From assembly GCA_029907165.1 (NCBI GenBank), contig JARYMK010000002.1:1-54754 (forward strand): DNA of 54,754 nucleotides, in the 5' to 3' direction. This document shows, piece after piece, positions 2,968 through 43,034 of the stretch. Below the pieces are notes generated by a model. That model did no database searches. It had not been told where the DNA came from and was given only the letters and a program-made list of their open reading frames with translations. Source of the stretch: Anaerolineae bacterium. GTDB lineage: Bacteria; Chloroflexota; Anaerolineae; DTLA01. The first letter of the stretch is position 1. Each line of letters opens with the position of its first letter. The translations under genes were made by a program, and so were the position numbers.

Positions 2968-3020
2968 TTTGGCGCGTCGCGGGAGGCCCGTCGTGCCTGT
3001 GTGAGTAAGGAGGTAACACG

Positions 3021-4901
3021 ATGGCAGAGGCAGAACGGTTTGGCTATCACAACCGCATCCTGCGGGTCAACCTGACCAGCGGGGAGATTCGCGAGGAGCA
3101 CCCCGGCGAGGAGTTCTACCGCGCCTACCTGGGGGGCCGCAACCTCATCGCCCACACGCTGCTGCGCGAAGTTCCTGCGGACGCTGATCCCCTGGGGCCG
3201 GACAATCGGCTCATCTTTGCGGCGGGCATCATCACCGGCGCGCCGGTCGCGGGCGCGGGGCGCAACAGCGTGGGCGCGCGCTCGCCGCTGACGGGCGGGT
3301 GCGGCGACGCCGAAGCGGGCGGATTCTGGGGCGCAGAACTCAAGCGCGCGGGGTTTGACGCCGTGATCGTTGAGGGCGCGTCGGACAAGCCGGTGTACCT
3401 GTACATCCGCGACGGGCAGGCCGAAATCCGTTCGGCCGAGCACCTGTGGGGGCTGCCCACCGCCGAGGCGCAGGAAGCCATCCGCCGCGAGTTGGGCGAC
3501 CACGGGGTTCGCGTGGCGCAGATTGGCCCGGCGGGCGAAAGGCAGGTGCGGCTGGCGTGCATTGCCAACGACCTGACCCACTTCTACGGGCGCACGGGCA
3601 TGGGCGCGGTCATGGGGGCCAAGCGGCTGCGCGCCATCGCTGTGCGGGGGACGAAGCCCGTGCCACTGGCTAACCCCGATGGCGTGCAAGCGCTCGCCCG
3701 CTGGCTGGCGGCCAACGACGAGAAACTCAACGCCGGCTTCCGCGACACGGGCACCGCAGGCGGCGTTCAGTACCTGAATGCCAGCGGCGGCCTGCCCACC
3801 CGCAACTTCCGGCAGGGACATTTTGAGCACGCCATCCGCATCGCCGGCGAGACCATGCGCGACGAGATTCTGGTGAACCGCGGTTCCTGCTGGGCGTGCA
3901 TCGTGCGCTGCAAGCGGGTTGTGGGAGGCGTGCACGGGTCGCGCGTGTTGCATCCTGTGTACGGCGGCCCGGAGTACGAATCGGTCGCGGCGCTGGGTTC
4001 GTGCTGCGGGGTGGGCGATTTGGCTGCTGTGGCGCTGGCCAACGAGCGATGCGCCGCCCTGGGTCTGGACACCATCGGCACGGGTATGGCTATCGCCTTC
4101 GCCATGGAGTGCTACGAGAACGGCGTCCTCACGCGAGCCGACACCGACGGGCTGGACCTGCGCTTCGGCAACGCCGAGGCCATGCTGGCGATGGTGGAAG
4201 CCATCGGCGAGCGGCGTGGGCTTGGCCACATCCTGGCGGAAGGGACTGCGCAGGCGGCGAAACTCATCGGGCGCGGGGCCGAGCGTTTCGTGATGACGGT
4301 CAAGGGGCAGGAGATTCCCATGCACGAGCCGCGCTTCAAGCACGGCCTTGGCATCGGCTACGCCGTCTCACCGACGGGCGCAGACCACATGCACGACGAT
4401 GGGCTGGTGAAGGCGGGGCGCTCCTTCCGCGAGCGGTTCGGGCCGCTGGGCATCCTGTCGCCCATGCCCGTCAACGACTTGAGCGAGCGCAAAGTCCGCG
4501 CGTTCTACTACGTGTCCACGTGGAACCATCTCTACAACAGCCTGGGCCTGTGCCAGTTCATGCCCTATTCGCCCAACCAGGTGGTGGATCTGGCGCGGGA
4601 CATCACGGGGTGGAACGTGAGCCTGTGGGAACTGATGAAGGCGTCGGAGCGGGGCCAGCAGATGGCGCGGCTGTTCAACCTGCGGTGCGGGTTCGGCGCC
4701 GACGATGACTGCCTGCCGCGCCGATTCTACGAGGCATTCGCCGACGGGCCGCTGGCAGGCGTGGCGCTGAAGCCCGATGAGCTTGAGCGTGCGCTGGCGC
4801 TGTACTACGGCATGATGGGCTGGGACGACGCGGGCCATCCCACGGCGGCGCGGCTAGCAGAGTTGGGCCTGGACTGGGCGCAGGGCGGTGTAGATGGGTA
4901 G
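3021..4901 (+). CDS. aor: Tungsten-containing aldehyde:ferredoxin oxidoreductase (AOR family)
   Basis: 626 aa; N-terminus YHNRILRVNLTSGEI..., GGRNL..., PLGPDNRLIFAAGIITGAPVAGAGR, SPLTGG are typical AOR N-domain motifs; AAGGAGG RBS before the ATG. Confidence 0.88.
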   Translation: MAEAERFGYHNRILRVNLTSGEIREEHPGEEFYRAYLGGRNLIAHTLLREVPADADPLGPDNRLIFAAGIITGAPVAGAGRNSVGARSPLTGGCGDAEAGGFWGAELKRAGFDAVIVEGASDKPVYLYIRDGQAEIRSAEHLWGLPTAEAQEAIRRELGDHGVRVAQIGPAGERQVRLACIANDLTHFYGRTGMGAVMGAKRLRAIAVRGTKPVPLANPDGVQALARWLAANDEKLNAGFRDTGTAGGVQYLNASGGLPTRNFRQGHFEHAIRIAGETMRDEILVNRGSCWACIVRCKRVVGGVHGSRVLHPVYGGPEYESVAALGSCCGVGDLAAVALANERCAALGLDTIGTGMAIAFAMECYENGVLTRADTDGLDLRFGNAEAMLAMVEAIGERRGLGHILAEGTAQAAKLIGRGAERFVMTVKGQEIPMHEPRFKHGLGIGYAVSPTGADHMHDDGLVKAGRSFRERFGPLGILSPMPVNDLSERKVRAFYYVSTWNHLYNSLGLCQFMPYSPNQVVDLARDITGWNVSLWELMKASERGQQMARLFNLRCGFGADDDCLPRRFYEAFADGPLAGVALKPDELERALALYYGMMGWDDAGHPTAARLAELGLDWAQGGVDG

Positions 4902-5692: not shown

Positions 5693-7090
5693 CTACGCAG
5701 GCCCGTGGAACGCAGGCCAGATGTAGACGCCCCAGGCCACGGCGTTGAGCAACAGCAGCGCGCCGCCCACTAGCAGGGGCAGCCTGCGCCTTGCAGATGA
5801 AGGCAGCCAGTAGGCCCATCCCGCCACAAGGCAACAGGCAATGGGGCCGATGGCGGGGAGCAGGTACCGCCCCTGCTGGGGAATGCCCTGGGCGATGGCT
5901 GCTCCGACAATCTGAAGCACGGCCAGCAGGGCCGCGCCCGCCACGAGAACTTGCGCACGCGGTAGCGGGCGGCGCGCACGGCGGAATGCGCGAATCAACC
6001 CCGCCAGCGCCGCCGCGGTCAGGCAGGCTAGCGCCGCGTACCACCCGACGCCCAGCCGCACCGTGAGCCACCCGAACGCCCCCCAGAAACTGGCGAAGGC
6101 GATGCCCAGCGCCCGCGCGTATCCGAGCAATGCGATGGGCGGCCATGCTTCCGCCGAGAACAGGCGCGAGAGCCATTCGGCGCGGATGCCGAGCAATCCG
6201 TCGGGCGAAGCGCCCGGATAGGGCCACGCCTGGCCCGGCGCGGCGAGGGGCGGGCGGGCGAGTGCCCATGCCGCCACCAGCGCGCCTGCGCCCAGGGCCG
6301 CGATGCCCGCGCCGAGCGCCCACGCTGCGCTCCGCTGACCTGCGCTAGCCGCCGCGCGCCTGTTGAGGAGCAAGAACAGCGCCCCCGTCGGCACCAGGAA
6401 CAGCGTCGTGCGCTTGGTCAGCAGGCTGGCGGCCACGAGCAGGCCGAGGACTAGCCCCCGCGCTGGCGCCAGCGGCCCGTCAACCCAGGCCGCCATGGCG
6501 CAGAGCGCGGCCCCGCCCAGCAGCGCCGCCAACGTGTCGCTGTTGGCTCCGGCGGTCATGTAGGCGCGCATGGGCAGGGAGGCTACGAAGCAAAGAGCCG
6601 CGGCTTGCAGGTGCGCTTCGCGGGGGAACGCCGCACGGGCCAGCTGAAAGACGAAGAACAGTTCCGCCAGCCCCAGGAGCACCGACAGCCCGCGCAGGCT
6701 CCGCACCTGGGCGTCCACCCCCGCGCCGCCGACAAGGCGGAGCGCACCAGCGGCTAGCACGTAGTAGCCCGGCGACGCAGCGATAGGCGGCAGGAGCACG
6801 TCGGGCGCTGTATCGGCCCAGAGCGAGGGCGGCGGAGTGCGGTGCGCGCGAATCTCCCAGAAGCGATGCCGCACGAGGGAAGCGTACACGTCCCGCTCCA
6901 ACTGCAGCGCGCCCCACACATCCGACAGCGTGGGCCAGCGACCTAGGTCGGCTACCAGGCGGGCCAACTGGTAGTGCTGCGGCTCGTCTGGGACCTGCCA
7001 CAGTGGCGTGAAGGCAAAGCAGACGGCGGAGAGAGCCAGGCCGAGGATGAGGATGGCGAGCAGATTTCGGAAGTCGCGGGCCGTATCCAC
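5693..7090 (-). CDS. Polytopic GT-C-like membrane glycosyltransferase (DUF2142 / ArnT-PMT-like)
   Basis: 465 aa, more than 10 hydrophobic helices. VPDEPQHY motif in the first external loop after TM1. Last gene of the degT-capD operon. Confidence 0.5.
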   Translation of the reverse strand: MDTARDFRNLLAILILGLALSAVCFAFTPLWQVPDEPQHYQLARLVADLGRWPTLSDVWGALQLERDVYASLVRHRFWEIRAHRTPPPSLWADTAPDVLLPPIAASPGYYVLAAGALRLVGGAGVDAQVRSLRGLSVLLGLAELFFVFQLARAAFPREAHLQAAALCFVASLPMRAYMTAGANSDTLAALLGGAALCAMAAWVDGPLAPARGLVLGLLVAASLLTKRTTLFLVPTGALFLLLNRRAAASAGQRSAAWALGAGIAALGAGALVAAWALARPPLAAPGQAWPYPGASPDGLLGIRAEWLSRLFSAEAWPPIALLGYARALGIAFASFWGAFGWLTVRLGVGWYAALACLTAAALAGLIRAFRRARRPLPRAQVLVAGAALLAVLQIVGAAIAQGIPQQGRYLLPAIGPIACCLVAGWAYWLPSSARRRLPLLVGGALLLLNAVAWGVYIWPAFHGPA

Positions 7091-7101
7091 CGCCGACGGT
7101 T

Positions 7102-8976
7102 CTATGACCCGCCTTCCAGCAGGGGCACTTCGGCTTCCTGGAAGTCGGGCACCAGTTCGCGCAGCGTCCTGCGGATGGCCACCTCGTCCATCTGCGCTGC
7201 GTATTCGGCCAAGAGGTCAATCATCCGGTACAGGCGGTCGCCGTCCACCGGCACGGACTGGGCGATGAAGATTTTCTCGTACACAGTGGCTGTACGCTGC
7301 TCGTCGCGGGTGAACAGTTCCTCATGGAGTTTCTCGCCCGGACGCAGGCCCGTGTACACGATTTCAATGTCGCGGCCCAGTTTCAGTCCCGACAGTTCCA
7401 CCAGGTCCTTGGCCAAATCCACGATGCGGATCGGGTCGCCCATGTCCAGGGCGTAGATTTGGCCCGGCGTGGCCAGTGAAGCCGCCTGAATGACGAGTTG
7501 GACGGCCTCGGGGATGGTCATGAAGAAGCGGGTCATCTCCGGGTGGGTGATGGTGATGGGGCCACCGGCGGCGATCTGCTCCTTGAACAGCGGGACCACA
7601 CTACCGCGGCTACCGAGCACGTTGCCAAAGCGCACGGCCACGAACGCGCGTCCGCTTCGCATCGCGGCCTCTTGCACGATCATCTCGGCGATGCGTTTGG
7701 TCGCGCCCATGATGCTGGTAGGGCGCACGGCCTTGTCCGTGGAGATCAGCACAAACCGCTCCACGTCGGCGGTCAGCGCGGCCTGGACAACGTTTCGCGT
7801 GCCCAGCACGTTGTTGGTGATCGCCTCGTCCACGTTGTGTTCCATCAGCGGCACGTGCTTGTGCGCCGCCGAATGGAACACGATCTGCGGGCGGTAGCGT
7901 TGCAGGATCGCGTGAATCTTGTTCGCGTCGCGGATGTCGGCGATGATCACGTCCCGCGGCAGCGACGGGAACTTGCGGCACAGTTCCTGCTCAATGTTGT
8001 AGATGCTGTTCTCGCCGTGGCCCAACAGGATGAGGTGGCCGGGGCGGAACCGCGCGATCTGGCGGCACAATTCAGACCCGATGGACCCGCCCGCGCCGGT
8101 TACCAGGATGGTGGCCCCGGAGATGAAGCCGGCAATTTCCTCCAGGTTGACGCTGGTCGGTTCGCGGCGCAGCAGGTCTTCCAATTGCACCTCGCGGATT
8201 TGGCTGAGCCAGACCTTGCCGTTCAGGAGTTCAAACAGGCCGGGCAACGTGCGGAATCGGATGCCTGCGCTCTCGCAGATGCTGACGATTTCGCGGATGG
8301 ATTTGCCGGGCGCTGTGGGCATGGCGATGAGCGCCTCGTCCACGTGCAGCCGCCGCGCCAGTTCGGGGATGTCCCTGCGCGAACCGTAGACCTTGACGCC
8401 GTGGATGTAGTTGCCGATTTTCCGTTCGTCATCGTCCACGAACCCCACCGGCAGCATATTGATTTCGGGGTTGTTGTGCATCTCGCGGACGATCATGGCA
8501 CCCGCATCCCCGGCGCCGATGACCAGGATGCGACGCGGCACGCCACCCTGGCCGATCCTACTCTTGCGGCCGGTCGTGATATCCCAGGCGATCTTGGACG
8601 AAAAACGGACGCCCCCAAGGAGAAGGATGTTCAGCAACCAGTCGATGATGAGCATGGGGCGGGAGAAGCCGGAGATGATCTTCAGGGGGCGCATGACGCC
8701 GTAGATGAGGATGGCCAACACCGCCGACGCGATGCTCGCCGCCGCGATGATGGCCAGCACTTCGTGGCTGCCCGCGTACTGCCACATGCGCCGGTACAGG
8801 CCGAACAGGTGGAATGCCAGTGGGTAGAGGATGAGCAGGGCGGGCACGACCGGCCACCAGCGCTGGAAGTAACTCCACGCGGTGAACGTGTCAAAGCGCA
8901 GGAAATAACTCAGGAGAAGCGCCAACAGCAGCAAGACCAGGTCAGCGATAAGCAAATACCGATTCCTGAGCCACAT
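7102..8976 (-). CDS. Membrane-anchored nucleotide-sugar 4,6-dehydratase/epimerase (CapD/PglF/WbpM family)
   Basis: 624 aa; N-terminal TM helices, then two Rossmann regions (ILVIGAGDAG and ILVTGAGGSIGSEL); family-typical YGATKR-like region MGATKRIAE. Confidence 0.88.
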   Translation of the reverse strand: MWLRNRYLLIADLVLLLLALLLSYFLRFDTFTAWSYFQRWWPVVPALLILYPLAFHLFGLYRRMWQYAGSHEVLAIIAAASIASAVLAILIYGVMRPLKIISGFSRPMLIIDWLLNILLLGGVRFSSKIAWDITTGRKSRIGQGGVPRRILVIGAGDAGAMIVREMHNNPEINMLPVGFVDDDERKIGNYIHGVKVYGSRRDIPELARRLHVDEALIAMPTAPGKSIREIVSICESAGIRFRTLPGLFELLNGKVWLSQIREVQLEDLLRREPTSVNLEEIAGFISGATILVTGAGGSIGSELCRQIARFRPGHLILLGHGENSIYNIEQELCRKFPSLPRDVIIADIRDANKIHAILQRYRPQIVFHSAAHKHVPLMEHNVDEAITNNVLGTRNVVQAALTADVERFVLISTDKAVRPTSIMGATKRIAEMIVQEAAMRSGRAFVAVRFGNVLGSRGSVVPLFKEQIAAGGPITITHPEMTRFFMTIPEAVQLVIQAASLATPGQIYALDMGDPIRIVDLAKDLVELSGLKLGRDIEIVYTGLRPGEKLHEELFTRDEQRTATVYEKIFIAQSVPVDGDRLYRMIDLLAEYAAQMDEVAIRRTLRELVPDFQEAEVPLLEGGS

Positions 8977-10265: not shown

Positions 10266-11075
10266 TTAGCCCTGTCGCATAGAGTGAAGGATGGCTTCCA
10301 GCACGCCGCCCGCGATGGCCAGCGCCTTGTCCGAGATGGTGAAGCAGTGCTCGCGGGCGGCGCGGGGGTCCACGTCGCCCACCTTCATGTTGGCGTGCAC
10401 GGTCAGCCCATCGTGGAGCAGCCCCCGCAGGACGCCCTTCAGCCGCACGCGCACCGGCTCATTGTCCACATACGCGACGACGTCGCCCACGTCCACCATG
10501 TCGCCGATTTCGCGCACACCGCGGAACACCCCTGCGCAGGGGGCGCGCACCACTCGCTGCTCGGCGTAGCCGCCGACCTCGCCCGGGATTCCCGTGTTGG
10601 GCAAGGCTTGCCCTTGCCAGATCACGCGCCCCAGGGTGTGCCCCCGCATGGTTTCTACCACGGCGTGGACGTCTTCGCCTGCGGTGAACCCCGGCCCCAG
10701 CCCAATGACCAGGGGCGCGTCGGTGATGCGCGTGCCCAGGTTGCGCTTGGCCAGGATGGCGTCCACCACCACATCCGGGCGCAGTTCGCAGATGATGGCT
10801 GCCTCGGGGTCCACGACGACGGGGAGAACGCCCTCGGCCCAGGCGGCCCGAACGCCCTCCGCGCCTTCCACCTTGCGGCCTCGCACGCCGTCCACGACCG
10901 TCTCACCTTCCCAGACGGCCGTGGCGAAGGCTACCTTGCGGCGGATCACGGTGGGGGCGGGGATTTCGGTAACCACGACCTGGAACCCGCAGTTCCACAG
11001 CCGCCAGGCCACGCCCGAAGCCAGGTCGCCGCCCCCCTTCACGACAACGGTAACCGTCTTGCCCAGCACGGTCAT
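10266..11075 (-). CDS. yqeB: YqeB-family protein (selenium-dependent molybdenum hydroxylase system accessory protein, short form equal to the C-terminal half of E. coli YqeB)
   Basis: VVVKGGGDLASGVAWRLWNCGFQVVVTEIPAPTVIRRKVAFA and VVDAILAKRNLGTRITDAPLVIGLGPGFTAGEDVHAVVETMRGHTLGRVI match my recollection of the E. coli YqeB C-terminal region. ATG at 11075 has GGGGAGGTG upstream. Confidence 0.8.
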   Translation of the reverse strand: MTVLGKTVTVVVKGGGDLASGVAWRLWNCGFQVVVTEIPAPTVIRRKVAFATAVWEGETVVDGVRGRKVEGAEGVRAAWAEGVLPVVVDPEAAIICELRPDVVVDAILAKRNLGTRITDAPLVIGLGPGFTAGEDVHAVVETMRGHTLGRVIWQGQALPNTGIPGEVGGYAEQRVVRAPCAGVFRGVREIGDMVDVGDVVAYVDNEPVRVRLKGVLRGLLHDGLTVHANMKVGDVDPRAAREHCFTISDKALAIAGGVLEAILHSMRQG

Positions 11076-11097: not shown

Positions 11098-12168
11098 CTA
11101 CGGCTGGATGGTCGGCGTTGGCGGCAATGCGGCGTTGTACCGAGCGGCCAGCGCGGCGAGTTCGGGGTCGTCGGCGTACTCCTCACTGAGGGGGATTATA
11201 CCCGCTCTCGCCGAGATAACGTTGCCCTCGGCGTCAAAGTCCACGGTGATCTCGCCAAGCCACTCGCCGCCATAGCCCGCCTGGCCGATGACGGTGTTGT
11301 TGAGTTGCAGCGTCTCCTGCAGCAGGTCGTAGGAGTGACCTCCGACGATGGCCGTGATGCCGTTTACCTCGGTGGCGATCTTACGGTCCATGACGTTGCC
11401 CAGGTGCGACAGGATGACGACGGCGTCCACCTTGTCGGCGCGGGCCTTGGCGACATACTCGCGGGCGGTCTCCACCGGGTCCTTGGTCGTAATGTTCGTT
11501 GACGGCGGCACGAAGGACTTGAACGTGTCGTCGGCAGGTGTCAGGCCGATGATGGCAACCTTGCGCCCGCCCACATCTTGCACGACGTAAGGCGTGAAGA
11601 CCGGCTTGCCCGAGTCGGCGTACACCAGGTTGGCCGACAGGAAGGCGAACTTGGCCTCGCGCGAGCGGTCCAGGAGTTCCGGGAAGTGCGCCAGGTCGCG
11701 TTCACCGATGGCCATGGCGTTGTACTTCATCAGGTTCATGGCTTCGGTGAGGGCCTTGCCCTGGCTGATGTCGGAGACCGGCTGGCCGAAGAGCGCGTCG
11801 CCCGCGTCCAGGACGAGCAAGTACGGGGTCTTGGCGCGGTAGTTCTTGATGGCGGTAGCCCGACGGGCCACACCCCCCTTGGGGGGTCGTCAGCCGCAGG
11901 GGTCTATGTAGCCCGCAACGTCGGTGGTGTGCAGGATGGTGAGGGTCCACGGGCCGGTGGGCCGTGCGGCGTTGCGGCGGATGAGCGCCTGGGCGGTGAT
12001 GAGCGCCGCGACCACGACCAGCGCCAGTGCAATCGGCGCGATCCAGCGTTTGATTCCGGCGCTTGGGGTGGCCTTCTTCGGTTTCGGCTTGGCTTCGCCC
12101 TTCTTGGCGGTGGATTGGGCAGGGCGAGGGGCCTGCTGCGTCTGTTTCTTCTTGCGTTTCTTGGCCAC
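11098..12168 (-). CDS. Membrane-anchored calcineurin-like metallophosphoesterase / 5'-nucleotidase N-domain protein with one in-frame TGA (11892-11890): candidate selenoprotein (alternatively a pseudogene)
   Basis: ORFs 12168-11890 and 11871-11098 share one frame, separated by TGA plus 6 sense codons. The read-through product is ...LTILHTTDVAGYIDPCG-U-RPPKGGVARRATAIKNYR...LDAGDALFG...AIGERD...LSHLG...GGHSY. GTG start has GAGGTG upstream. Confidence 0.6.
11855..11889 (-). promoter_or_regulatory. Two hairpins directly 3' of the in-frame UGA (SECIS-like)
   Basis: mRNA: UGA CG ACCCCCC-AA-GGGGGGU then GUGGCCC[GUC]GGGCUAC (7-bp stem, G/U-containing apical loop about 26 nt after the UGA). Confidence 0.4.
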
Positions 12169-12332
12169 GCTTCACCTCACAAGTGGATTGCTTGACGGAA
12201 CCAGTCCCAGGTGGCTAGATGGCTCCGCTGACAGATGCCCATCGCGGAGCCAGTGCCGCGCTCGTAATGATACCACGTTACGACCGTTTCTCCCAAAAGT
12301 CGGGGTTGCGCCCGTGCACTAGGCGGGCAGAA

Positions 12333-14272: not shown

Positions 14273-14800
14273 TCAATCGACCAACCCCAGAATCTCCTCC
14301 AGGCGCGCTCGCTTGTCGGCGAACTCCGCTTCGTAGAGGCGCACGCAGCGGGTTAGTTCCGTCGTCCCCGCCACCAGTTTGCTGGCGAAGACGAAGCACG
14401 TGGGGTCGCCGCACTGCTTGCAGTTCCCGCCCGGCAGGAGTTTGTAGATTTCCATCACAGTGGGCTGGTAGCGCTTCTCGTTGGAAGGCACGATCTCGTG
14501 CCGCCTGTCCCAGACCCTGTTGATCTCGTCCAGAATGCGCTCGGCCACGCGCTGGGCCTCTTGGCGGTCCTCCAAGTTGCTGATGGCGACCTCGTGCGGA
14601 CGGAGGGTATAGCGACGGCCTCCCCGCACCATCGTCAGGATGTGGTTTTCGTGGTCGTAGATGGCATTCTTCCACAGCGTATTGAGGTAGGGCATGACCT
14701 CGCTGATGTCCTCCTGGAGCCGCACAAATGCGCTCCAGCGATCCGATCCTGGGTCGCATGGCGGCGAGATAACTTCCAGGTCGTACTCCTTGCACAGCAT
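14273..14800 (-). CDS. Cytoplasmic Fe-S protein: uncharacterised N-domain plus RnfB/AcsC-type Fe-S cluster domain (CxxCGxxxC)
   Basis: C-terminus has LLPGGNCKQCGDPTCFVFASKLVAG (PF04060-type motif as in the RnfB N-terminus). GGGAGG lies 8 nt before the ATG. The gene stops 8 nt before the Trx-CcdA start. Confidence 0.65.
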   Translation of the reverse strand: MLCKEYDLEVISPPCDPGSDRWSAFVRLQEDISEVMPYLNTLWKNAIYDHENHILTMVRGGRRYTLRPHEVAISNLEDRQEAQRVAERILDEINRVWDRRHEIVPSNEKRYQPTVMEIYKLLPGGNCKQCGDPTCFVFASKLVAGTTELTRCVRLYEAEFADKRARLEEILGLVD

Positions 14801-14889
14801 TGTGCATCCTCCCTACGTGCTTGCATCGGTATGGCTCGGAAATGGGGGCTTGGCCGTAGGCCGGCGACCTGGGTGTGCCGCCCGATTGA

Positions 14890-14960: not shown

Positions 14961-15338
14961 TCAGTCTCTGGAGCACACGGGGCAGGGGCATCCTGGCACT
15001 GGCCCCTCCTCCGACGTGGGGAATTGCACCGACTCCCCGAATTTGGCCGTTGCCCAATTGCGGCTCGCGGCGATGAGGTCCATCACCCGCTCGTCGGTGA
15101 GCCGATAGTACATGAGCGTGCCGTCGCGGCGTTCGGCGATGAGGCCGGCCTCGCGCAGGATAGCCAGTTGCTGGGAGATGTAGGGCTGCCGCTGCCCCAG
15201 CGCCGCAGTGAGGTGGCAGACGCACGCTTCCCCGCACTGGGCCAGCATCTCCAGGATGCGGAGGCGCACCGGGTGGGATAGTACCTTGTGCAGTTTCGCC
15301 ATAGCGGTGTAGCCGCTGGCCAGCGTTTTTGCTCTCAT
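14961..15338 (-). CDS. ArsR/SmtB-family metalloregulator with alpha3 CVC motif and C-terminal CPCPVC
   Basis: LSHPVRLRILEMLAQCGEACVCHLTAALGQRQPYISQQLAILREAGLI (wHTH with ELCVCDL-like site); C-terminus GPVPGCPCPVCSRD. ATG at 15338 lies 7 nt after a -10 box, so the mRNA is probably leaderless. Confidence 0.8.
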   Translation of the reverse strand: MRAKTLASGYTAMAKLHKVLSHPVRLRILEMLAQCGEACVCHLTAALGQRQPYISQQLAILREAGLIAERRDGTLMYYRLTDERVMDLIAASRNWATAKFGESVQFPTSEEGPVPGCPCPVCSRD

Positions 15339-15345
15339 ACCCAGT

Positions 15346-15373
15346 AGGATACACCGCGCCGCGGCCTTGTCAA
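15346..15373 (-). promoter_or_regulatory. sigma70-like promoter of arsR-like gene (leaderless transcript likely)
   Basis: Minus strand TTGACA-16 nt-TATCCT, then 7 nt to the ATG. Confidence 0.5.
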
Positions 15374-15378
15374 GTTGC

Positions 15379-15399
15379 GGGTGAGGGCTGACCTCACCC
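15379..15399. promoter_or_regulatory. Perfect 8-bp inverted repeat just upstream of the arsR -35 (possible operator or hairpin)
   Basis: GGGTGAGG-gctga-CCTCACCC. Confidence 0.3.
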
Positions 15400-15535
15400 C
15401 CTCGATCCCCTTTCCGCGTGCGGAGAGAGGGAAGTCGGCGGCTGGGGGCGAGGCGGATACACCCACGCGGAACAAACGCCCCCACGCTGACGTCTCAAAG
15501 GCGCACACACGACAGTCTGTGGCAAGGAGGGTGAA

Positions 15536-33516: not shown

Positions 33517-33712
33517 CCCCGCTGAACCTATGACGCAGGATGTTTGGTGAGTACAATGGTTGGGCACGTCGCGCTCTTCGTTTCCTATTGAGATGCCCTG
33601 AGCAGGGCCAGTCGCCGACAGGCGGGCTGCCCTCATTTTGTGCCTTTCGCATTGACCACCCAAACACAACATCATGGCTTGCCGTGCGCAGCGACAGGCA
33701 AGAGGAGGAAAT

Positions 33713-34288
33713 ATGAGCAAGTTGGTAGAAGTACGTTGGCATGGCCGTGGCGGCCAGGGCGCGGTTACGGCGGGAAAAGTCCTCGCCGAGGCCGCGCTGG
33801 ATGCGGGCCTGTACTTCCAGGCGTTCCCCGAGTACGGCCCCGAACGCATGGGCGCGCCGATTCAGGCCTTCACCCGCATCAGCGATCACCCCGTTGACCT
33901 GCACTGCCAGATTGAGGAGCCCGACGTGGTGGTGGTGCTGGACCCCACGCTCTTGGGCACGGTGAACGTAACCGAGGGCCTCAAGCCCGATGGCATCCTG
34001 CTGGTCAACACCAGCGCCTCGCCCGCGGAAATCCGCGAGCAACTCAACCTCCGCACGGGGCGCGTCTTCACGGTGGACGCCAGCCGCATCGCCATTGAGA
34101 CGCTGGGGCGTGAGATCACCAACACGCCCATGCTGGGCGCGCTGGTCAAGGCCACGGGCCTGTTTGACGTGGAGGCCATCGTGGAGCAGACCCGCCAGCG
34201 GTTCACCAAGAAGCACATGAAGGCCGACATCGTGGAAGCCAACATCGCCGCGATTCGTCGCGCCGCCGAAGAAGTCAAAGAGGGCTAG
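33713..34288 (+). CDS. porG: Pyruvate (2-oxoacid):ferredoxin oxidoreductase gamma subunit
   Basis: VEVRWHGRGGQGAVTAGKVLAEAA... ; AGGAGG RBS before the ATG at 33713. Confidence 0.85.
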   Translation: MSKLVEVRWHGRGGQGAVTAGKVLAEAALDAGLYFQAFPEYGPERMGAPIQAFTRISDHPVDLHCQIEEPDVVVVLDPTLLGTVNVTEGLKPDGILLVNTSASPAEIREQLNLRTGRVFTVDASRIAIETLGREITNTPMLGALVKATGLFDVEAIVEQTRQRFTKKHMKADIVEANIAAIRRAAEEVKEG

Positions 34289-34312
34289 CCCTCGTCGGAA
34301 AGGAGGAACACT

Positions 34313-34645
34313 GTGGCTAAAGGTTGGAAGGACCTCCCCATCGGAGGCATGATTCTGGAAGCGGGTAACTCCGCGCAATACAACACAGGCGCGTGGCGGG
34401 CCTTCCGCCCCGTGCGCGATGCCAGCCGTTGCACCAACTGCATGTTCTGCTGGGTCTTTTGCCCCGACTCCAGCATCCGCGTCAAGGATGAGAAGATGGT
34501 AGGGTTTGACCTGCTCCACTGCAAGGGCTGCGGCATCTGCGCCAACGTGTGCCCCGTCAAGTGCATTGAGATGCACGACGAGGCCGAGTTCGGCGGCTCC
34601 AGGGAAATGGTGGATGAGCCTGGCCGCGCGGGAGGTGCCAAATGA
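34313..34645 (+). CDS. porD: 2-oxoacid:ferredoxin oxidoreductase delta subunit (2x[4Fe-4S])
   Basis: CTNCMFCWVFCP and CKGCGICANVCP motifs; GTG start with AGGAGG. Confidence 0.85.
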   Translation: MAKGWKDLPIGGMILEAGNSAQYNTGAWRAFRPVRDASRCTNCMFCWVFCPDSSIRVKDEKMVGFDLLHCKGCGICANVCPVKCIEMHDEAEFGGSREMVDEPGRAGGAK

Positions 34646-35829
34646 GCGAGTTCAAAGCACTGGACGGGACCGGCGCCGTCGCCGAGGCGATGCGACAGAT
34701 CAACCCCGACGTCGTCGCCGCGTACCCCATCACACCCCAGACCGCCATCGTGCAGACGTTCTCGGAGTTCGTCGCCGACGGGCTGGTGGACACCGAGTTC
34801 ATCACCGTGGAGAGCGAGCACAGCGCCTTGAGCGCGTGCGTGGGCGCTGCGGCTGCGGGCGCGCGCGTCATGACGGCCACCTCGTCGGCGGGCCTGGCGT
34901 TCATGTGGGAAATCCTGTACGTGGCGGCGTCCAATCGCCTGCCCATCATCATGACCAACGTGAACCGCGCGCTGTCGGCCCCCATCAACATCCACTGCGA
35001 CCACTCGGACTCCATGGGCGCGCGCGACGCGGGCTGGATTCACCTGTTCTGCGAGAACGCACAGGAGGCCTACGACACGGTCATCCAGGCCGTGCGCATC
35101 GCCGAGCACCCCGACGTGCTGCTGCCGGTGATGGTGCTGTTTGACGGGTTCATCACGTCCCACGCCGAGGAGCGCGTGGAAATCTTTGACGACGCCTGGG
35201 TCAAGGCGTTCGTCGGCGAGTACAAGCCCAAGCACTCGCTGCTGGACCTGGACCATCCGGTAACCTACGGCCCGCTGGACTTCACCGACTACTACTTTGA
35301 GCACAAGCGCCAGCAGGTGGAAGCCATGCGCCATGCCCAGAAGGTCATCCTGGACGTGGCCGACGAGTTCGCCAAGACGTTCGGGCGCAAGTACGGCCTG
35401 TTTGAGATGTACCGCCTGGACGACGCCGAGGTGGCGGTTGTGGTGTCGTCGTCCACCGCCGGCACGGCCCGCGCCGCCGTGGACAAACTGCGGGCGCAGG
35501 GGGCGAAGGTGGGCCTGCTCAAGCCGCGCGTCTTCCGTCCGTTCCCGGCCCAGGAAATGGTGGCTGCCCTGCAGCATCTGAAGGCGGTCGGCGTCATGGA
35601 CCGCGCCATCTCGTTCGGCTCCATGGGCAACGCAGGGCCACTGTTCCTGGAACTGGCGGCGGCGATGAAAATCTACGATGCGGGCGTCCCCATGGCCGAC
35701 TTCGTGTTCGGCCTGGGCGGGCGCGACATCGTCCCCTCGCAGATTGAGGGCGTATTCCGCAGCCTGCTCCAGATCGCCGAGACCGGCAAGGTGTCCGAAC
35801 TGGTCTCCTACGTCGGCGTGCGCGAGTAG
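34642..35829 (+). CDS. porA: 2-oxoacid:ferredoxin oxidoreductase alpha subunit
   Basis: LDGTGAVAEAMRQINPDVVAAYPITPQT...; 4-nt overlap with porD. Confidence 0.88.
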   Translation: MSEFKALDGTGAVAEAMRQINPDVVAAYPITPQTAIVQTFSEFVADGLVDTEFITVESEHSALSACVGAAAAGARVMTATSSAGLAFMWEILYVAASNRLPIIMTNVNRALSAPINIHCDHSDSMGARDAGWIHLFCENAQEAYDTVIQAVRIAEHPDVLLPVMVLFDGFITSHAEERVEIFDDAWVKAFVGEYKPKHSLLDLDHPVTYGPLDFTDYYFEHKRQQVEAMRHAQKVILDVADEFAKTFGRKYGLFEMYRLDDAEVAVVVSSSTAGTARAAVDKLRAQGAKVGLLKPRVFRPFPAQEMVAALQHLKAVGVMDRAISFGSMGNAGPLFLELAAAMKIYDAGVPMADFVFGLGGRDIVPSQIEGVFRSLLQIAETGKVSELVSYVGVRE

Positions 35830-35847
35830 GCGGGAAAGGAGAACAAC

Positions 35848-36783
35848 ATGGCAACGAAACTGAATCTCAAAGAACTGTCCAAGCGCGAGGACCGGCTGGC
35901 TCCGGGACACCGCCTGTGCGCGGGGTGCGGCGCGGGCATCGTCGTGCGCCAGATTCTGGCCGCCATTGACGAGCCTGTCGTCCTGGCCAATGCCACCGGC
36001 TGCCTGGAAGTGTCCACCACCATCTTCCCCTATACGTCGTGGCGCGTGCCCTGGATTCACAACGCCTTTGAGAACGCCGCGTCCACCATGAGCGGCGTGG
36101 AGACGGCGTACCGCGCCCTGGTGAAGCGGGGCAAGATTCCCGAGCAGAACGTGAAGTTTATCGCCTTCGGTGGCGACGGCGGCACGTATGATATCGGCAT
36201 CCAGGCCCTGTCGGGCGCGTTGGAGCGCGGGCACAAGATGATGTACGTCTGCTACAACAACGAGGCGTACATGAACACCGGCATCCAGCGTTCCAGCGCC
36301 ACGCCGTTGGGGGCCAACACGACCACATCGCCCGCGGGCAAGGTCATCCCGGGCAAGATGCAGCCCCGCAAGGACCTGACGGCCATCTGCGCGGCGCACA
36401 ATATCCCCTATGTGGCCCAGGCGTCGCCCCACAACTGGCGCGACCTGATGGAGAAGGCCCGCAAGGGCGTGGCCGCCGACGGCCCGGCGTTCCTGAACGT
36501 CCTGTCGTCCTGCAACCGCGGGTGGCGGCACGACACGTCTACCACCGTGGAGGTCATGAAACTGGCGACGGAGACCTGCGTCTGGCCGCTGTACGAGGTG
36601 GAGAACGGCGTGTGGCGGCTCACCTACAAGCCCAAGGTCAAGAAGCCCGTTACCGAATGGCTAGAGGCCCAGGGCCGCTTCCGCCACCTGTTCCGCCCGG
36701 AGAACCAGTACATGATAGAGCGCATCCAGGCGGATGTGGACGGGAAGTGGGAGCGCCTGCTGAAACTCTGCGGGGAAGCGTAG
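35848..36783 (+). CDS. porB: 2-oxoacid:ferredoxin oxidoreductase beta subunit (TPP-binding)
   Basis: PGHRLCAGCGAGI..., GGDGGTYDIG, YNNEAYMNTGIQRS. Confidence 0.88.
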   Translation: MATKLNLKELSKREDRLAPGHRLCAGCGAGIVVRQILAAIDEPVVLANATGCLEVSTTIFPYTSWRVPWIHNAFENAASTMSGVETAYRALVKRGKIPEQNVKFIAFGGDGGTYDIGIQALSGALERGHKMMYVCYNNEAYMNTGIQRSSATPLGANTTTSPAGKVIPGKMQPRKDLTAICAAHNIPYVAQASPHNWRDLMEKARKGVAADGPAFLNVLSSCNRGWRHDTSTTVEVMKLATETCVWPLYEVENGVWRLTYKPKVKKPVTEWLEAQGRFRHLFRPENQYMIERIQADVDGKWERLLKLCGEA

Positions 36784-40600: not shown

Positions 40601-42925
40601 CTACCTCGGCAGGCCGCACACGTACAGCGCGTCGCCCGCGGTGAAGTACAGCCGCGCGTTGGCCTCATCTACGCGCAGGTCGGTGATGCGGGCGAAGAAG
40701 TCCCCCTCACGGAACCGGAACTGTCGCACGAACTTGCCGTCCTTGGCGAATTGCAACACGCGCTGCGCGCCTGGGTCCGCCACGTACACGTGCTCGACCT
40801 CCTCGTCCACGTCGGCGTAGACGGCGACGGGCTGCTGGAGCGGTTGGGCGAGGCCCTCCAGCGAGAACGGCTGCTTATCGCCCCGCTTGAACTTCTCCAG
40901 GCGGCCCGTGCCGTACAGCACGTAAATGGCCCCGTCAATAGCGATGTCCACCGCGCCGCGCAGGTCACGGGTCTGCGCCAGGGCGAACCACTCGTCGGGC
41001 GGGCTTTCGTACCCGTTGGCGGTCGCCGAATACCGGAATATCTGGTTGCCGCCCGCGTCCAGAACGTAGAGGTTGCCGCGGTAGGACGCCATGGCCGCGG
41101 GCTGCTGCCACTTGTCCGTGCCGGCGAGCGCGAGCAGGCTCACCCCCCGCCGCGGGCTGTATTCCAGGAGTCGGCGGTCGCCTGTAACCACGAGCAAGCC
41201 GCTGGATGCGCGGTTGTCCACGGCCGCCGCCCAAGCCATCTTCCACAGGCTGCCAACGGTGTATCCCCCGACGGTGGCCCCTCGTGTTACGATTCCGGGC
41301 GCGCTCTGGTCTGGCTGGAGCTCCACGCCCGTCTCGTCCAGCGTCCTGCGCACCACGCGGCCGCTCTTGCTGTCCAGTAGGTACACGTCCGACCCCGCGA
41401 TGACAAGCCCATCCCATGCGGCCTGTTCGGCGGCGGACGCCTGATACAGGACGCGCGGTGCGTCCAGGCGGACGGTGCCCTCCACTTGGTCCAGCGTGGC
41501 CTGCACCTGGGCGGCGAGTTGCGCCGTGCGCGGGTCCTGCGCACGTATCTGGCGGGCCTGCTCTACCAGCACCAGCGCCTCGGTCAGGAGCACCTGCTTC
41601 TCCTGGACGGTCGGGGCGCGCTGGGCGAGACCAACCTTCGTCTCCGCCATGCGCAGCAGGCCATTGTACTGTTGCAGCCGCTGCTTGGACTGGATGAGTT
41701 GCGTTACCAGGATGAGGACAACGATCAGCGGGATGGCGACGGCCAGCAGCAGCCACAGCCGCCGCACCGAGGGCCTGGCTGGGCGGGCGGCAGGTGCGGG
41801 ACGCGGGCGGGCGACGGCGGGGCGCGGCCGAGGGCGGAACAGCGCGGCCAGCCAGCCGACGACCACGGCGAACCCCAGCGCCGCGTCGGATAAGAACGTC
41901 GCGAGGCCCCTGCGCAGGGCGCGGCCTAGCCCCAGCAGGGAGAAGCCGCCCCTTGCCGCCCGCGCAGGCGCTCTCGCGGGCATGGCGGGCAAAACCGACT
42001 CTTCTAGGCGGGGGACGGCTTTGGGAGGCGGCATGGGAACCAGCGTCTCGGCGGCCGTCTCCCAGTCGGCGGCGACGAGACCCTCTTCCACCAATTCCTC
42101 GGCCTCCGCCAGTTCTTCGGGCGCGGCCGCCGGCTCCATCTCAGGGGGCGCTTCGGGTTCAGCGGGAGCCTCGGCCGGGGCGCTTGGCGCGGGCGCAGCG
42201 GCCACTGGCGGCTCGCCTTTGGCGTGGATGAGGATGACCATGCAGGCCACCTCGGCGTCGCCGCACAGACGCGCCAGGTTGTAAAGCGCGTCGTCAATGG
42301 GCTGAAACAGCACAGCCTCTCCCACATCCTTCGTCGCCACGGTATGGGCCAACGCGGTCGTGCCCAGGACGATGGCATCACCGGGCTGCACCGATGCATG
42401 GAACAGGTTCGCGTGTACGGTGGCGTGGACGCCGAGAGGCGCGGGGTACAGCCGCTCGGGGGCGCTGGGGAGCGGTCTCTGCAGCCAGGGCGAGGATTCC
42501 GGGAATCGGCGCAGGCTGCCCTTCTGCCCCAGGTACACGACCGCCGGGCCTGCCTGGCCGATGTACACGTCCTGCCCCATGTGGAACACGCAGGTAACGC
42601 CGCCCAGCAGGCGCTCCTCGGGCAGAAGCCCCACGTTGGCGTGGACGAGGAGCGCGTTGGCCTCCTGGATGGCCTCCTGCAGGCGCGCGGTGATGCTGCC
42701 CGCGTGGCGGAAGTAGGCGTCGCTGATGGCCTGGAGGAGTTCCTCGTAAATCTCCTCCTCGCCCAGGGAGCGGCCCACCAGTTCCACGGCGATGGCCAAC
42801 TGGCCCGCCTCGCGACTCTGGGGGTCCAGCGGCCCCCGCGTTACCAGCAGGTTGGGGGCCTCGTCCTGGACGGTGCCGTCCACGATGCTGAACAGGCCCA
42901 CTGTTGAGGTGAGATCCACTGCCAT
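40601..42925 (-). CDS. Bitopic membrane protein: cytoplasmic degenerate PP2C/SpoIIE-like domain, Pro/Ala/Glu linker, one TM helix, external beta-propeller (NHL-like) domain
   Basis: N-terminus has GGVTCVFHMGQDVYIGQAGPAVVYL (PP2C-like strand pattern but GDSR replaced by AGPA). TM helix LWLLLAVAIPLIVVLILV. C-terminus has repeated YVLD/YVAD...G strands, e.g. HVYVADPGAQRVLQFAKDGKFVRQF. Confidence 0.55.
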   Translation of the reverse strand: MAVDLTSTVGLFSIVDGTVQDEAPNLLVTRGPLDPQSREAGQLAIAVELVGRSLGEEEIYEELLQAISDAYFRHAGSITARLQEAIQEANALLVHANVGLLPEERLLGGVTCVFHMGQDVYIGQAGPAVVYLGQKGSLRRFPESSPWLQRPLPSAPERLYPAPLGVHATVHANLFHASVQPGDAIVLGTTALAHTVATKDVGEAVLFQPIDDALYNLARLCGDAEVACMVILIHAKGEPPVAAAPAPSAPAEAPAEPEAPPEMEPAAAPEELAEAEELVEEGLVAADWETAAETLVPMPPPKAVPRLEESVLPAMPARAPARAARGGFSLLGLGRALRRGLATFLSDAALGFAVVVGWLAALFRPRPRPAVARPRPAPAARPARPSVRRLWLLLAVAIPLIVVLILVTQLIQSKQRLQQYNGLLRMAETKVGLAQRAPTVQEKQVLLTEALVLVEQARQIRAQDPRTAQLAAQVQATLDQVEGTVRLDAPRVLYQASAAEQAAWDGLVIAGSDVYLLDSKSGRVVRRTLDETGVELQPDQSAPGIVTRGATVGGYTVGSLWKMAWAAAVDNRASSGLLVVTGDRRLLEYSPRRGVSLLALAGTDKWQQPAAMASYRGNLYVLDAGGNQIFRYSATANGYESPPDEWFALAQTRDLRGAVDIAIDGAIYVLYGTGRLEKFKRGDKQPFSLEGLAQPLQQPVAVYADVDEEVEHVYVADPGAQRVLQFAKDGKFVRQFRFREGDFFARITDLRVDEANARLYFTAGDALYVCGLPR

Positions 42926-43034
42926 ACTTCTCCCTCCTCCACCCCGCGGAAAGAACAGTTGCCGCTTCGCTCTACATCCGTCGGTGCAATCCCCATGCCC
43001 CGTTCAGATGCCGGGCTGGTACTTGCGGGGGCAT

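Follow-up and report, generated by a model that had tools for sequence, protein, structure and literature searches.

The stretch of DNA analysed here (the window) comprises 54,754 nt of contig JARYMK010000002.1 from an Anaerolineae bacterium of the Chloroflexota (assembly GCA_029907165.1), and its subject is a putative UshA-like selenoprotein gene at 11098-12168 on the minus strand. Two open reading frames (ORFs), 12168-11890 (92 amino acids, aa) and 11871-11098 (257 aa), lie there in one common frame, with nothing between them but a TGA (11892-11890) and six sense codons (RPPKGG); the stop stands in the context ...DPCG-UGA-RPPKGGVARRAT. A GTG (12168-12166) opens the upstream ORF, which encodes a Lys-rich tail and one transmembrane (TM) helix, followed by ...LTILHTTDVAGYIDPCG. 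The supposed start of the downstream ORF is a GTG at 11871 with a G-run 1 nt before it. This layout is the one described in an earlier sequence-only reading of the locus. Translated through the UGA, with U for selenocysteine (Sec), the product has 356 residues: MAKKRKKK...IAPIALALVVVAALITAQALI...LTILHTTDVAGYIDPCG-U-RPPKGGVARRATAIK.... Its features, including two RNA hairpins, one of them a candidate Sec insertion sequence (SECIS), are as follows.

11098..12168, minus strand: predicted complete UshA-like selenoprotein gene of 356 codons plus a TAG stop (11100-11098), with the in-frame UGA as codon 93 (CD73 alignment across the stop; NF041198 match to residues 60-315).
12173..12178, minus strand: putative Shine-Dalgarno-like GAGGTG, 4 nt 5' of the GTG start, as read from the sequence.
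12037..12168, minus strand: Lys/Arg-rich N-terminal tail, residues 1-44, with 15 K/R and 1 D/E; predicted to be cytoplasmic by the positive-inside rule.
11980..12036, minus strand: single TM helix PIALALVVVAALITAQALI, residues 45-63 (mean Kyte-Doolittle 2.44 over 19 residues).
11911..11931, minus strand: vestigial motif I HTTDVAG, residues 80-86, with the Asp kept and the ligand His replaced by Ala (CD73 alignment and clade census).
11890..11898, minus strand: Cys91-Gly92-Sec93 (TGC GGC TGA), predicted Sec codon 11892-11890 (TGA in at least 83 copies from 77 loci; Cys forms exist).
11872..11887, minus strand: hairpin 1 (ACCCCCC AA GGGGGGU), 6 bp and a 4-nt loop (z=-0.98; 70% paired in relatives).
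11855..11871, minus strand: hairpin 2, predicted bacterial SECIS core, a 7-bp stem GUGGCCC/GGGCUAC with the apical loop GUC (11864-11862), within the V-A-R-R-A-T codons (folding, pairing and covariation).
11098..11871, minus strand: portion annotated publicly as a separate 257-aa protein, from a probably artefactual GTG inside the SECIS (database homologues of 255-257 aa).

Human CD73 (PDB 4h2b) aligns straight through the stop over query residues 69-283 (E=8.5e-33, phmmer against PDB sequences) and, with other chains, over residues 71-343. The alignment spans the stop, so that motif I lies upstream of it and the remaining motifs downstream, and neither ORF is a complete domain, as had been proposed from the letters of the DNA. 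The fold itself is clear from the match to PDB entries.

The UGA is conserved. A scan of one genome per GTDB species with the protein as query returned 79 loci, and in 77 of these an in-frame stop is present, with the frame continuing upstream to ...L-T-I-L-H-T-N-D-x-x-G-x-x-x-P-C-G-stop. The stop is TGA in all 79 occurrences tabulated, tandem paralogues included, and in four further loci, giving at least 83 gene copies with TGA at the Sec column and none with TAA, TAG, or a sense codon. Protein identity across these copies falls to ~35-40%, and coding conservation extends to either side of the stop; the approximately six codons between the UGA and the supposed restart are also kept in frame. 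The two closest relatives, L001 (94% identity) and L002 (90%), agree exactly with the window at the UGA codon. C91, G92, and U93 are invariant in 80 of 80 copies, the P-C-G-U motif is kept in 79-80 of 80, and the length after the UGA is 250-281 aa in nearly all complete copies (median, 257). The two exceptions among the 79 loci, L074 and L077, are ordinary 5'-nucleotidases: they carry NDLHG and GNHE motifs but no Cys. Two loci have PC-x-x-TGA, i.e., CxxU (PC-N-V-TGA at L033:667 and PC-Q-A-TGA at L050:2810), with one codon fewer before GGVARRAT, and this motif resembles that of the NCBIfam ‘family 2’.

UshA-like Sec genes are often multicopy in Anaerolineae. Tandem genes, as two copies ~1.0-1.2 kb apart, occur at L024, L028, L039, L055, and L056, one metagenome-assembled genome (MAG) carries L008, L012, and L063 and another carries L004 and L005; every copy comes with a TGA and a SECIS hairpin of its own.

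Homologues with Cys at the U column were recovered with a profile of the motif-I-to-motif-II segment (alignment A3) from a set of 5.8 billion proteins, in which the matches with Cys are fragments only (<=130 aa). Two Phycisphaerae proteins (P0195 and P0232) read PCGCGG...GGLARRAT, the Cys-Gly-Cys form to which the sequence-only reading had rightly referred, and two from Omnitrophota (P0145 and P0176) read PCNCP; CxxC is found at this spot in P0136 and P0204 (Planctomycetota) and in P0205. The homologue comparison suggested there thus returns TGA in 77 of 79 loci and Cys, aligned at the Sec column, in remoter relatives. The contigs retrieved for Cys-form genes are truncated or degraded at those genes. 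The Phycisphaerae PCGC gene at L080:4001-4800 is called as 94 aa only and loses its frame after ARRATFIDRVRA, perhaps through decay of the copy or a fault in the assembly.

Hairpin 2 conforms to the bacterial SECIS model quoted in PMC13188914: a loop of 3-9 nt, a stem of 4-16 bp, G[G/U] at the loop start, a spacing of 16-37 nt, and a minimum free energy of <= -7.5 kcal/mol. It starts 18 nt 3' of the UGA and its loop starts 25 nt 3' of it, with a 3-nt loop (GUC), a 7-bp stem, and a free energy of -9.9 kcal/mol (z=-3.26; 0 of 200 shuffles fold as well). In a gap-free alignment of the 60 nt from the UGA (A2; 81 sequences, 79 of them distinct), the helix (columns 22-28 with 32-38, loop 29-31) is 94% paired over the 79 distinct sequences. 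It is also the sole helix predicted by RNAalifold. The proposal that the second hairpin is a SECIS element with a G/U loop within the required spacing is thereby sustained.

Pairing in this helix covaries. Pair 27-33 is C:G in 66 sequences, U:A in 12, and U:G in 1 (Fisher p=2.5e-13, without phylogenetic correction), and pair 24-36 is G:C in 68, G:U in 5, A:U in 4, and C:G and U:A in 1 each. Because both pairs join third codon positions (Val/Leu with Ala for 24-36, Ala with Arg for 27-33), the covariation is synonymous. Codon choice follows the same pattern: the first hairpin Arg codon is always CGG or CGU, giving G or U at loop position 2, and the second is CGG, CGA, AGG, or AGA, whereas CGC, used for 44% of the Arg residues in the rest of these genes, occurs in 0 of 79 sequences at either hairpin Arg codon. 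As a control, three Cys-form genes encode the identical peptide GGLARRAT with non-complementary codons and lack the 7-bp stem; their corresponding 17-nt segments fold at -1.7, -1.7, and -6.1 kcal/mol. The outermost pair (columns 22/38; window 11871/11855) sets the first base of a Val/Leu codon against the first or second base of a Thr/Ser codon, and is G:C in 32 sequences, C:G in 11, and unpaired in 31 of 79. Both GUG...ACC (Val...Thr) and CUG...AGC (Leu...Ser) pair here, and RNA pairing may drive an amino acid covariation, V-ARRA-T versus L-ARRA-S.

Hairpin 1 does not share these properties. Two strong hairpins had been claimed directly after the UGA, and both are present in the sequence, but the first is neither significant nor conserved, and the 2-nt loop drawn for it is impossible. 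It folds no better than shuffled sequences (102 of 200 fold as well) and is not picked by RNAalifold, and a part in the signal is not supported for it. Its pairing is in large measure dictated by the Pro-Pro...Gly-Gly codons; the hairpin is probably a by-product of Pro-Pro-Lys-Gly-Gly coding, with a possible role as a spacer.

The best NCBIfam match of the protein is NF041198 (‘UshA_like_PCGU, UshA-like (seleno)protein’; E=6e-53), and P-C-G-U stands in the loop after motif I. Homology to COG0737/5'-nucleotidase proteins (5'-nucleotidase, UshA, and SoxB matches) is combined with CxU, the combination by which the group is defined in the literature. A 2008 selenoproteome table from the GOS (Global Ocean Sampling) data lists ‘COG0737, UshA-like, CxU’ with 76 Sec sequences (PMC2398784), a 2022 review lists an UshA-like selenoprotein under COG0737 (PMC9312934), and a 2026 review places UshA-like proteins under NF041198 and adds a CxxU ‘family 2’ (PMC13188914). 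The earlier suggestion of a new selenoprotein cannot stand beside these records and a model named after the motif: the window protein is a member of the known UshA-like CxU selenoprotein family and not of a new one.

Within that family the Chloroflexota clade is set apart by its architecture. In eight diverse clade members, NF041198 is again the best match (140-214 bits), always below its cutoff and over the N-terminal half only, and the same members fall below the cutoff of NF049981 (UshA_like_Sel_2), against which the CxxU loci L033 and L050 score 66-76 bits. These partial, subthreshold matches mark the clade as a single-domain relative captured by neither curated NCBIfam model. NF041198 has in common with it the P-C-G-U between motif I and the GGxARRAT helix, a 5'-nucleotidase-type N-domain, and the existence of both Sec and Cys forms, but it is a 519-position two-domain profile of which the clade matches only ~8-274, ending at the interdomain linker. 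NF049981 resembles it in its ~262-position single-domain architecture and in having Sec in the same loop (PCNV-U and PCQA-U in L033 and L050), but the window protein has CxU rather than CxxU and, at 43 bits, falls well short of the cutoff of 140. The residual novelty is modest: a short, N-domain-only exported clade with a degenerate metal site, common and often multicopy in Anaerolineae.

The nearest solved structures by sequence are those of CD73, the Thermus thermophilus 5'-nucleotidase, and UshA (4h2b, 2z1a, and 1ush). The scaffold HTxD...GGVAR...LDAGD...SAN...GG.S is common to CD73/UshA and the window protein, and both are (or, for the window protein, appear to be) extracytoplasmic, but the window protein is without the C-terminal substrate-binding domain and the metal ligands are missing. 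A Pfam search gave no match to that domain (PF02872), and the gene ends at 11098, 22 nt from the next one. The claimed ligand replacements, DVH to DVA and GNHE to GERD, are borne out in the CD73 alignment, and Pfam Metallophos scores 18.9, below its cutoff of 21.5.

Degeneration of the dimetal site extends across the clade. Among 80 copies, the motif I Asp is kept in 74 and the His in 4; the motif II Asp position is occupied by N (42) more often than by D (25) or S (10); at the Asn and His positions of motif III, the eight commonest residues include neither of the two; and the His residues of motifs IV and V are kept in 53 and 5, respectively. Conservation of >=97% is instead found at G86, P90, C91, G92, U93, G98, G99, A101, R102, R103, and A104. 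With the metal ligands lost and C-G-U invariant, phosphoesterase or nucleotidase chemistry is unlikely for the clade proteins, and the C-G-U loop is most likely the functional site, or at least its best candidate by sequence conservation. The sequence-only idea of a Cys/Sec centre in place of phosphoesterase chemistry fits this pattern. Motif I His is retained (NDVHG or EVHG) beside PCG-U at L062, L068, L065, and L071, which may be intermediates between metal-dependent and metal-independent forms.

The basic tail and single TM helix of the window protein suggest an N-in, domain-out topology. Relatives begin instead with lipobox or signal sequences (for example, LLAGC in L062 and LVTAC in L068) that lead into Pro/Thr-rich linkers, and the UshA-like clade as a whole appears to be extracytoplasmic.

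Taken together as one gene (12168-11098, minus strand), the locus very probably encodes a 356-residue selenoprotein, a short Chloroflexota/Anaerolineae form of the UshA-like CxU group, and the support for Sec is close to the most that comparing sequences can give. Judging from the sequence comparison, a ribosome that reaches the UGA at 11892-11890 would not terminate there; the hairpin at 11871-11855 would recruit SelB-GTP-Sec-tRNA(Sec), and selenocysteine would be inserted. In the product, one TM helix would join a cytoplasmic, Lys-rich tail to an extracytoplasmic domain folded like the 5'-nucleotidase N-domain (CD73, UshA, and SoxB relatives), without a C-terminal nucleotide-binding domain and with the classical dimetal ligands lost across the clade. 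The invariant block G86...P-C-G-U...G-G-x-A-R-R-A would lie in the loop after motif I.

Several points weigh against this reading. No selA, selB, selD, or tRNA-Sec was found in the 54.7-kb window (~30 ORFs were compared with NCBIfam for selA, selB, and selD) or in the flanks of 45 related loci. The hairpin has no Rfam match, either at the gathering threshold over the window or at E<=10 over 11780-11960, a null result that is expected, as bacterial SECIS elements are diverse. The covariation statistics of the hairpin carry no correction for phylogeny. The NF041198 match reaches 180 bits where the cutoff is 275 and spans only positions 8-271 of the 519 in the profile, and the biochemical role of the C-G-U centre is purely what we infer. 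The genetic code itself is standard, since TGA is an ordinary stop for other window genes; it ends 4 of the 22 confident ones, and global reassignment of UGA was rejected on this ground.

Recoding of the UGA to an amino acid other than Sec is very improbable, if a little less so than the other alternatives. Some anaerobes possess a selC* tRNA-Cys(UCA) with a dedicated SelB*/CysRS* (SelB-like factor and cysteinyl-tRNA synthetase), which can read Sec-UGA as Cys (PMC5389517), and the existence of Cys forms implies that Cys is functionally acceptable at the U position; another possible route is hairpin-stimulated near-cognate read-through to Trp, Cys, or Arg. However, selC* is reported in Firmicutes, Thermodesulfobacteria, Nitrospirae, and Proteobacteria and not in Chloroflexi (PMC5389517). 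Chloroflexi are documented Sec decoders, with selenoproteins and a genuine tRNA-Sec of the unusual 8/4 type. The hairpin, moreover, fits the SelB-type SECIS model in loop sequence and spacing, and the persistence of UGA in at least 83 copies, when mutation to TGC or TGT is cheap, is hard to explain unless Sec is advantageous.

A true stop, leaving a split gene or pseudogene with a 92-aa membrane peptide and a separate 257-aa protein started from GTG 11871, is slightly less probable again. It has in its favor the public record, the G-run before that GTG, and the absence of Sec machinery genes from the window and the flanks searched. The closest relatives in the protein database searched are ~245-290-aa fragments, which come from MAGs of Anaerolineae and Chloroflexota and are labelled hypothetical or ‘bifunctional metallophosphatase/5'-nucleotidase’. 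The 257-aa product is annotated in many genomes; the closest of all (P0001-P0009, 255-257 aa) share 84-95% identity with the window protein. MARRATAIK opens P0001, and all short matches aligned start at or just before ARRAT, which is, on these alignments, the signature of systematic truncation in public annotation. The supposed start codon is CTG in 29 of 79 sequences and TTG in 18 of 79, as expected of a simple Val/Leu codon, and the G-run is just 1 nt from the GTG. A true stop would moreover have to have stayed TGA, without exception and at one column, in at least 83 deeply divergent copies, with the roughly six codons up to the restart kept in frame; it would place motif I and the rest of one beta-sandwich domain on separate polypeptides and would leave the synonymous-site covariation of the hairpin unexplained. 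An assembly or sequencing error at 11890-11892 (true codon TGC or TGG) is the least credible alternative, since, although the source is probably metagenome assembled, the identical TGA recurs in independent assemblies from dozens of studies and L001 and L002 agree exactly at the codon.

For the selenoprotein reading, the Cys-Gly-Sec pair would be the working centre, as a selenenylsulfide redox couple or as a soft-metal/chalcogen ligand; a Cys-Sec redox or ligand centre is our best guess, held with low confidence. Comparison with related folds offers two analogies. HMMER aligns U93 with the first of the two cysteines in the CD73 loop ‘KCVDASRC’ (SSKCVDASRCMGGVARL). These presumably form a disulfide, which would suggest that the loop is able to host a chalcogen bridge. 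SoxB (TIGR04486; PDB 2wdc), the second-best NCBIfam match (127 bits) and a member of the same fold family, is periplasmic and acts on cysteine-bound sulfur species, a precedent for chalcogen chemistry in this fold. However, the score is far under the cutoff of 550, and the dimanganese site, which SoxB requires, is absent from the window protein. No sox genes were found near the selenoprotein gene.

The genes around the locus have the minus-strand order ArsR-type regulator, PF04060 Fe-S protein, thioredoxin/glutaredoxin (Trx/Grx)-like membrane protein, selenoprotein gene, YqeB, and DegT-type aminotransferase.

14961-15494, minus strand: ArsR/SmtB-family regulator.
14273-14812, minus strand: small protein whose C-terminal part is a PF04060 ‘putative Fe-S cluster’ domain, like the N terminus of the gamma subunit of CODH/ACS (carbon monoxide dehydrogenase/acetyl-CoA synthase).
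12333 to ~14249, minus strand: ~640-aa membrane protein, directly 5' of the selenoprotein gene.
10266-11075, minus strand: YqeB (TIGR03309, 380 bits versus a cutoff of 220), starting 22 nt after the selenoprotein stop with its own GGAGG.

The ~640-aa protein has a signal-like N terminus, three Trx/Grx-like domains with the CxxC motifs CPVC, CPEC, and CHEC, and a C-terminal polytopic membrane region with two cysteines (GLNPCAF and ELACTGQ), reminiscent of thiol-disulfide transporters of the DsbD/CcdA type. Pfam matches the Trx/Grx parts only and gave no match to the membrane part. Such a protein lies near UshA-like Sec genes in 10-12 of 78 loci (43-55% identity), including the CxxU locus L050; the ArsR regulator recurs in 9-10 loci and the PF04060 Fe-S protein in 8-9, which suggests a loosely conserved cluster around the selenoprotein gene. 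Unbiased clustering of the flanking ORFs revealed no universal neighbor; the Trx/Grx-like membrane protein (12 loci), ArsR (10), and the PF04060 protein (9) alone recur suggestively, each in a minority of loci. The association with the Trx-like membrane protein, itself a minority pattern, fits an extracytoplasmic redox role. It is possible, though rather doubtful, that the protein is an exported former phosphoesterase domain, its dimetal site lost, whose Cys-Gly-Sec loop serves thiol/selenol redox or chalcogen/soft-metal binding outside the cell, and that in part of the clade the Trx/Grx-like neighbor, under the ArsR-type regulator, keeps it reduced.

YqeB is a maturation factor for selenium-dependent molybdenum hydroxylases, and the sequence-only reading had pointed to the next gene as a YqeB-family marker of selenium-using genomes. 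The identity of the gene holds, but a functional link for the family does not: YqeB is adjacent only in the two closest relatives, L001 and L002, and was rejected as a functional partner on that ground. Neither YqeC nor SelD nor a molybdenum hydroxylase turned up in the window, and the YqeB neighbor is a weak hint of selenium use by the genome.

Elsewhere, the window genes are mostly housekeeping. A tungsten/molybdenum pterin enzyme, aldehyde:ferredoxin oxidoreductase (AFOR_N and AFOR_C; 3009-4901, plus strand), and subunits of a pyruvate/2-oxoacid:ferredoxin oxidoreductase (33656-36783, plus strand) together indicate an anaerobic lifestyle of the host. Three tRNA genes (Met-CAT, Gly-TCC, and Pro-TGG) are clustered at 2523-2786 on the minus strand. 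Two minus-strand ORFs, 40601-43003 (800 aa) and 5693-7216 (507 aa), have a coding-like GC bias at third codon positions and no NCBIfam or Pfam match.

The general picture of bacterial Sec decoding is unchanged by these results. At least 77 species-level Chloroflexota genomes carry the gene, several with tandem or multiple copies, and a dedicated model for the short clade would correct gene calls and raise selenoproteome counts for Anaerolineae. The SECIS is an RNA signal overlaid on the conserved peptide V/L-A-R-R-A-T/S, where it constrains the Arg codons (CGC never). With the metal ligands gone and only the C-G-U loop invariant, the clade offers a clean system for the role of Sec in this fold. 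If the repurposed redox or ligand reading is true, the 5'-nucleotidase fold would gain a biochemical function new to it, one that would merit a separate family model.

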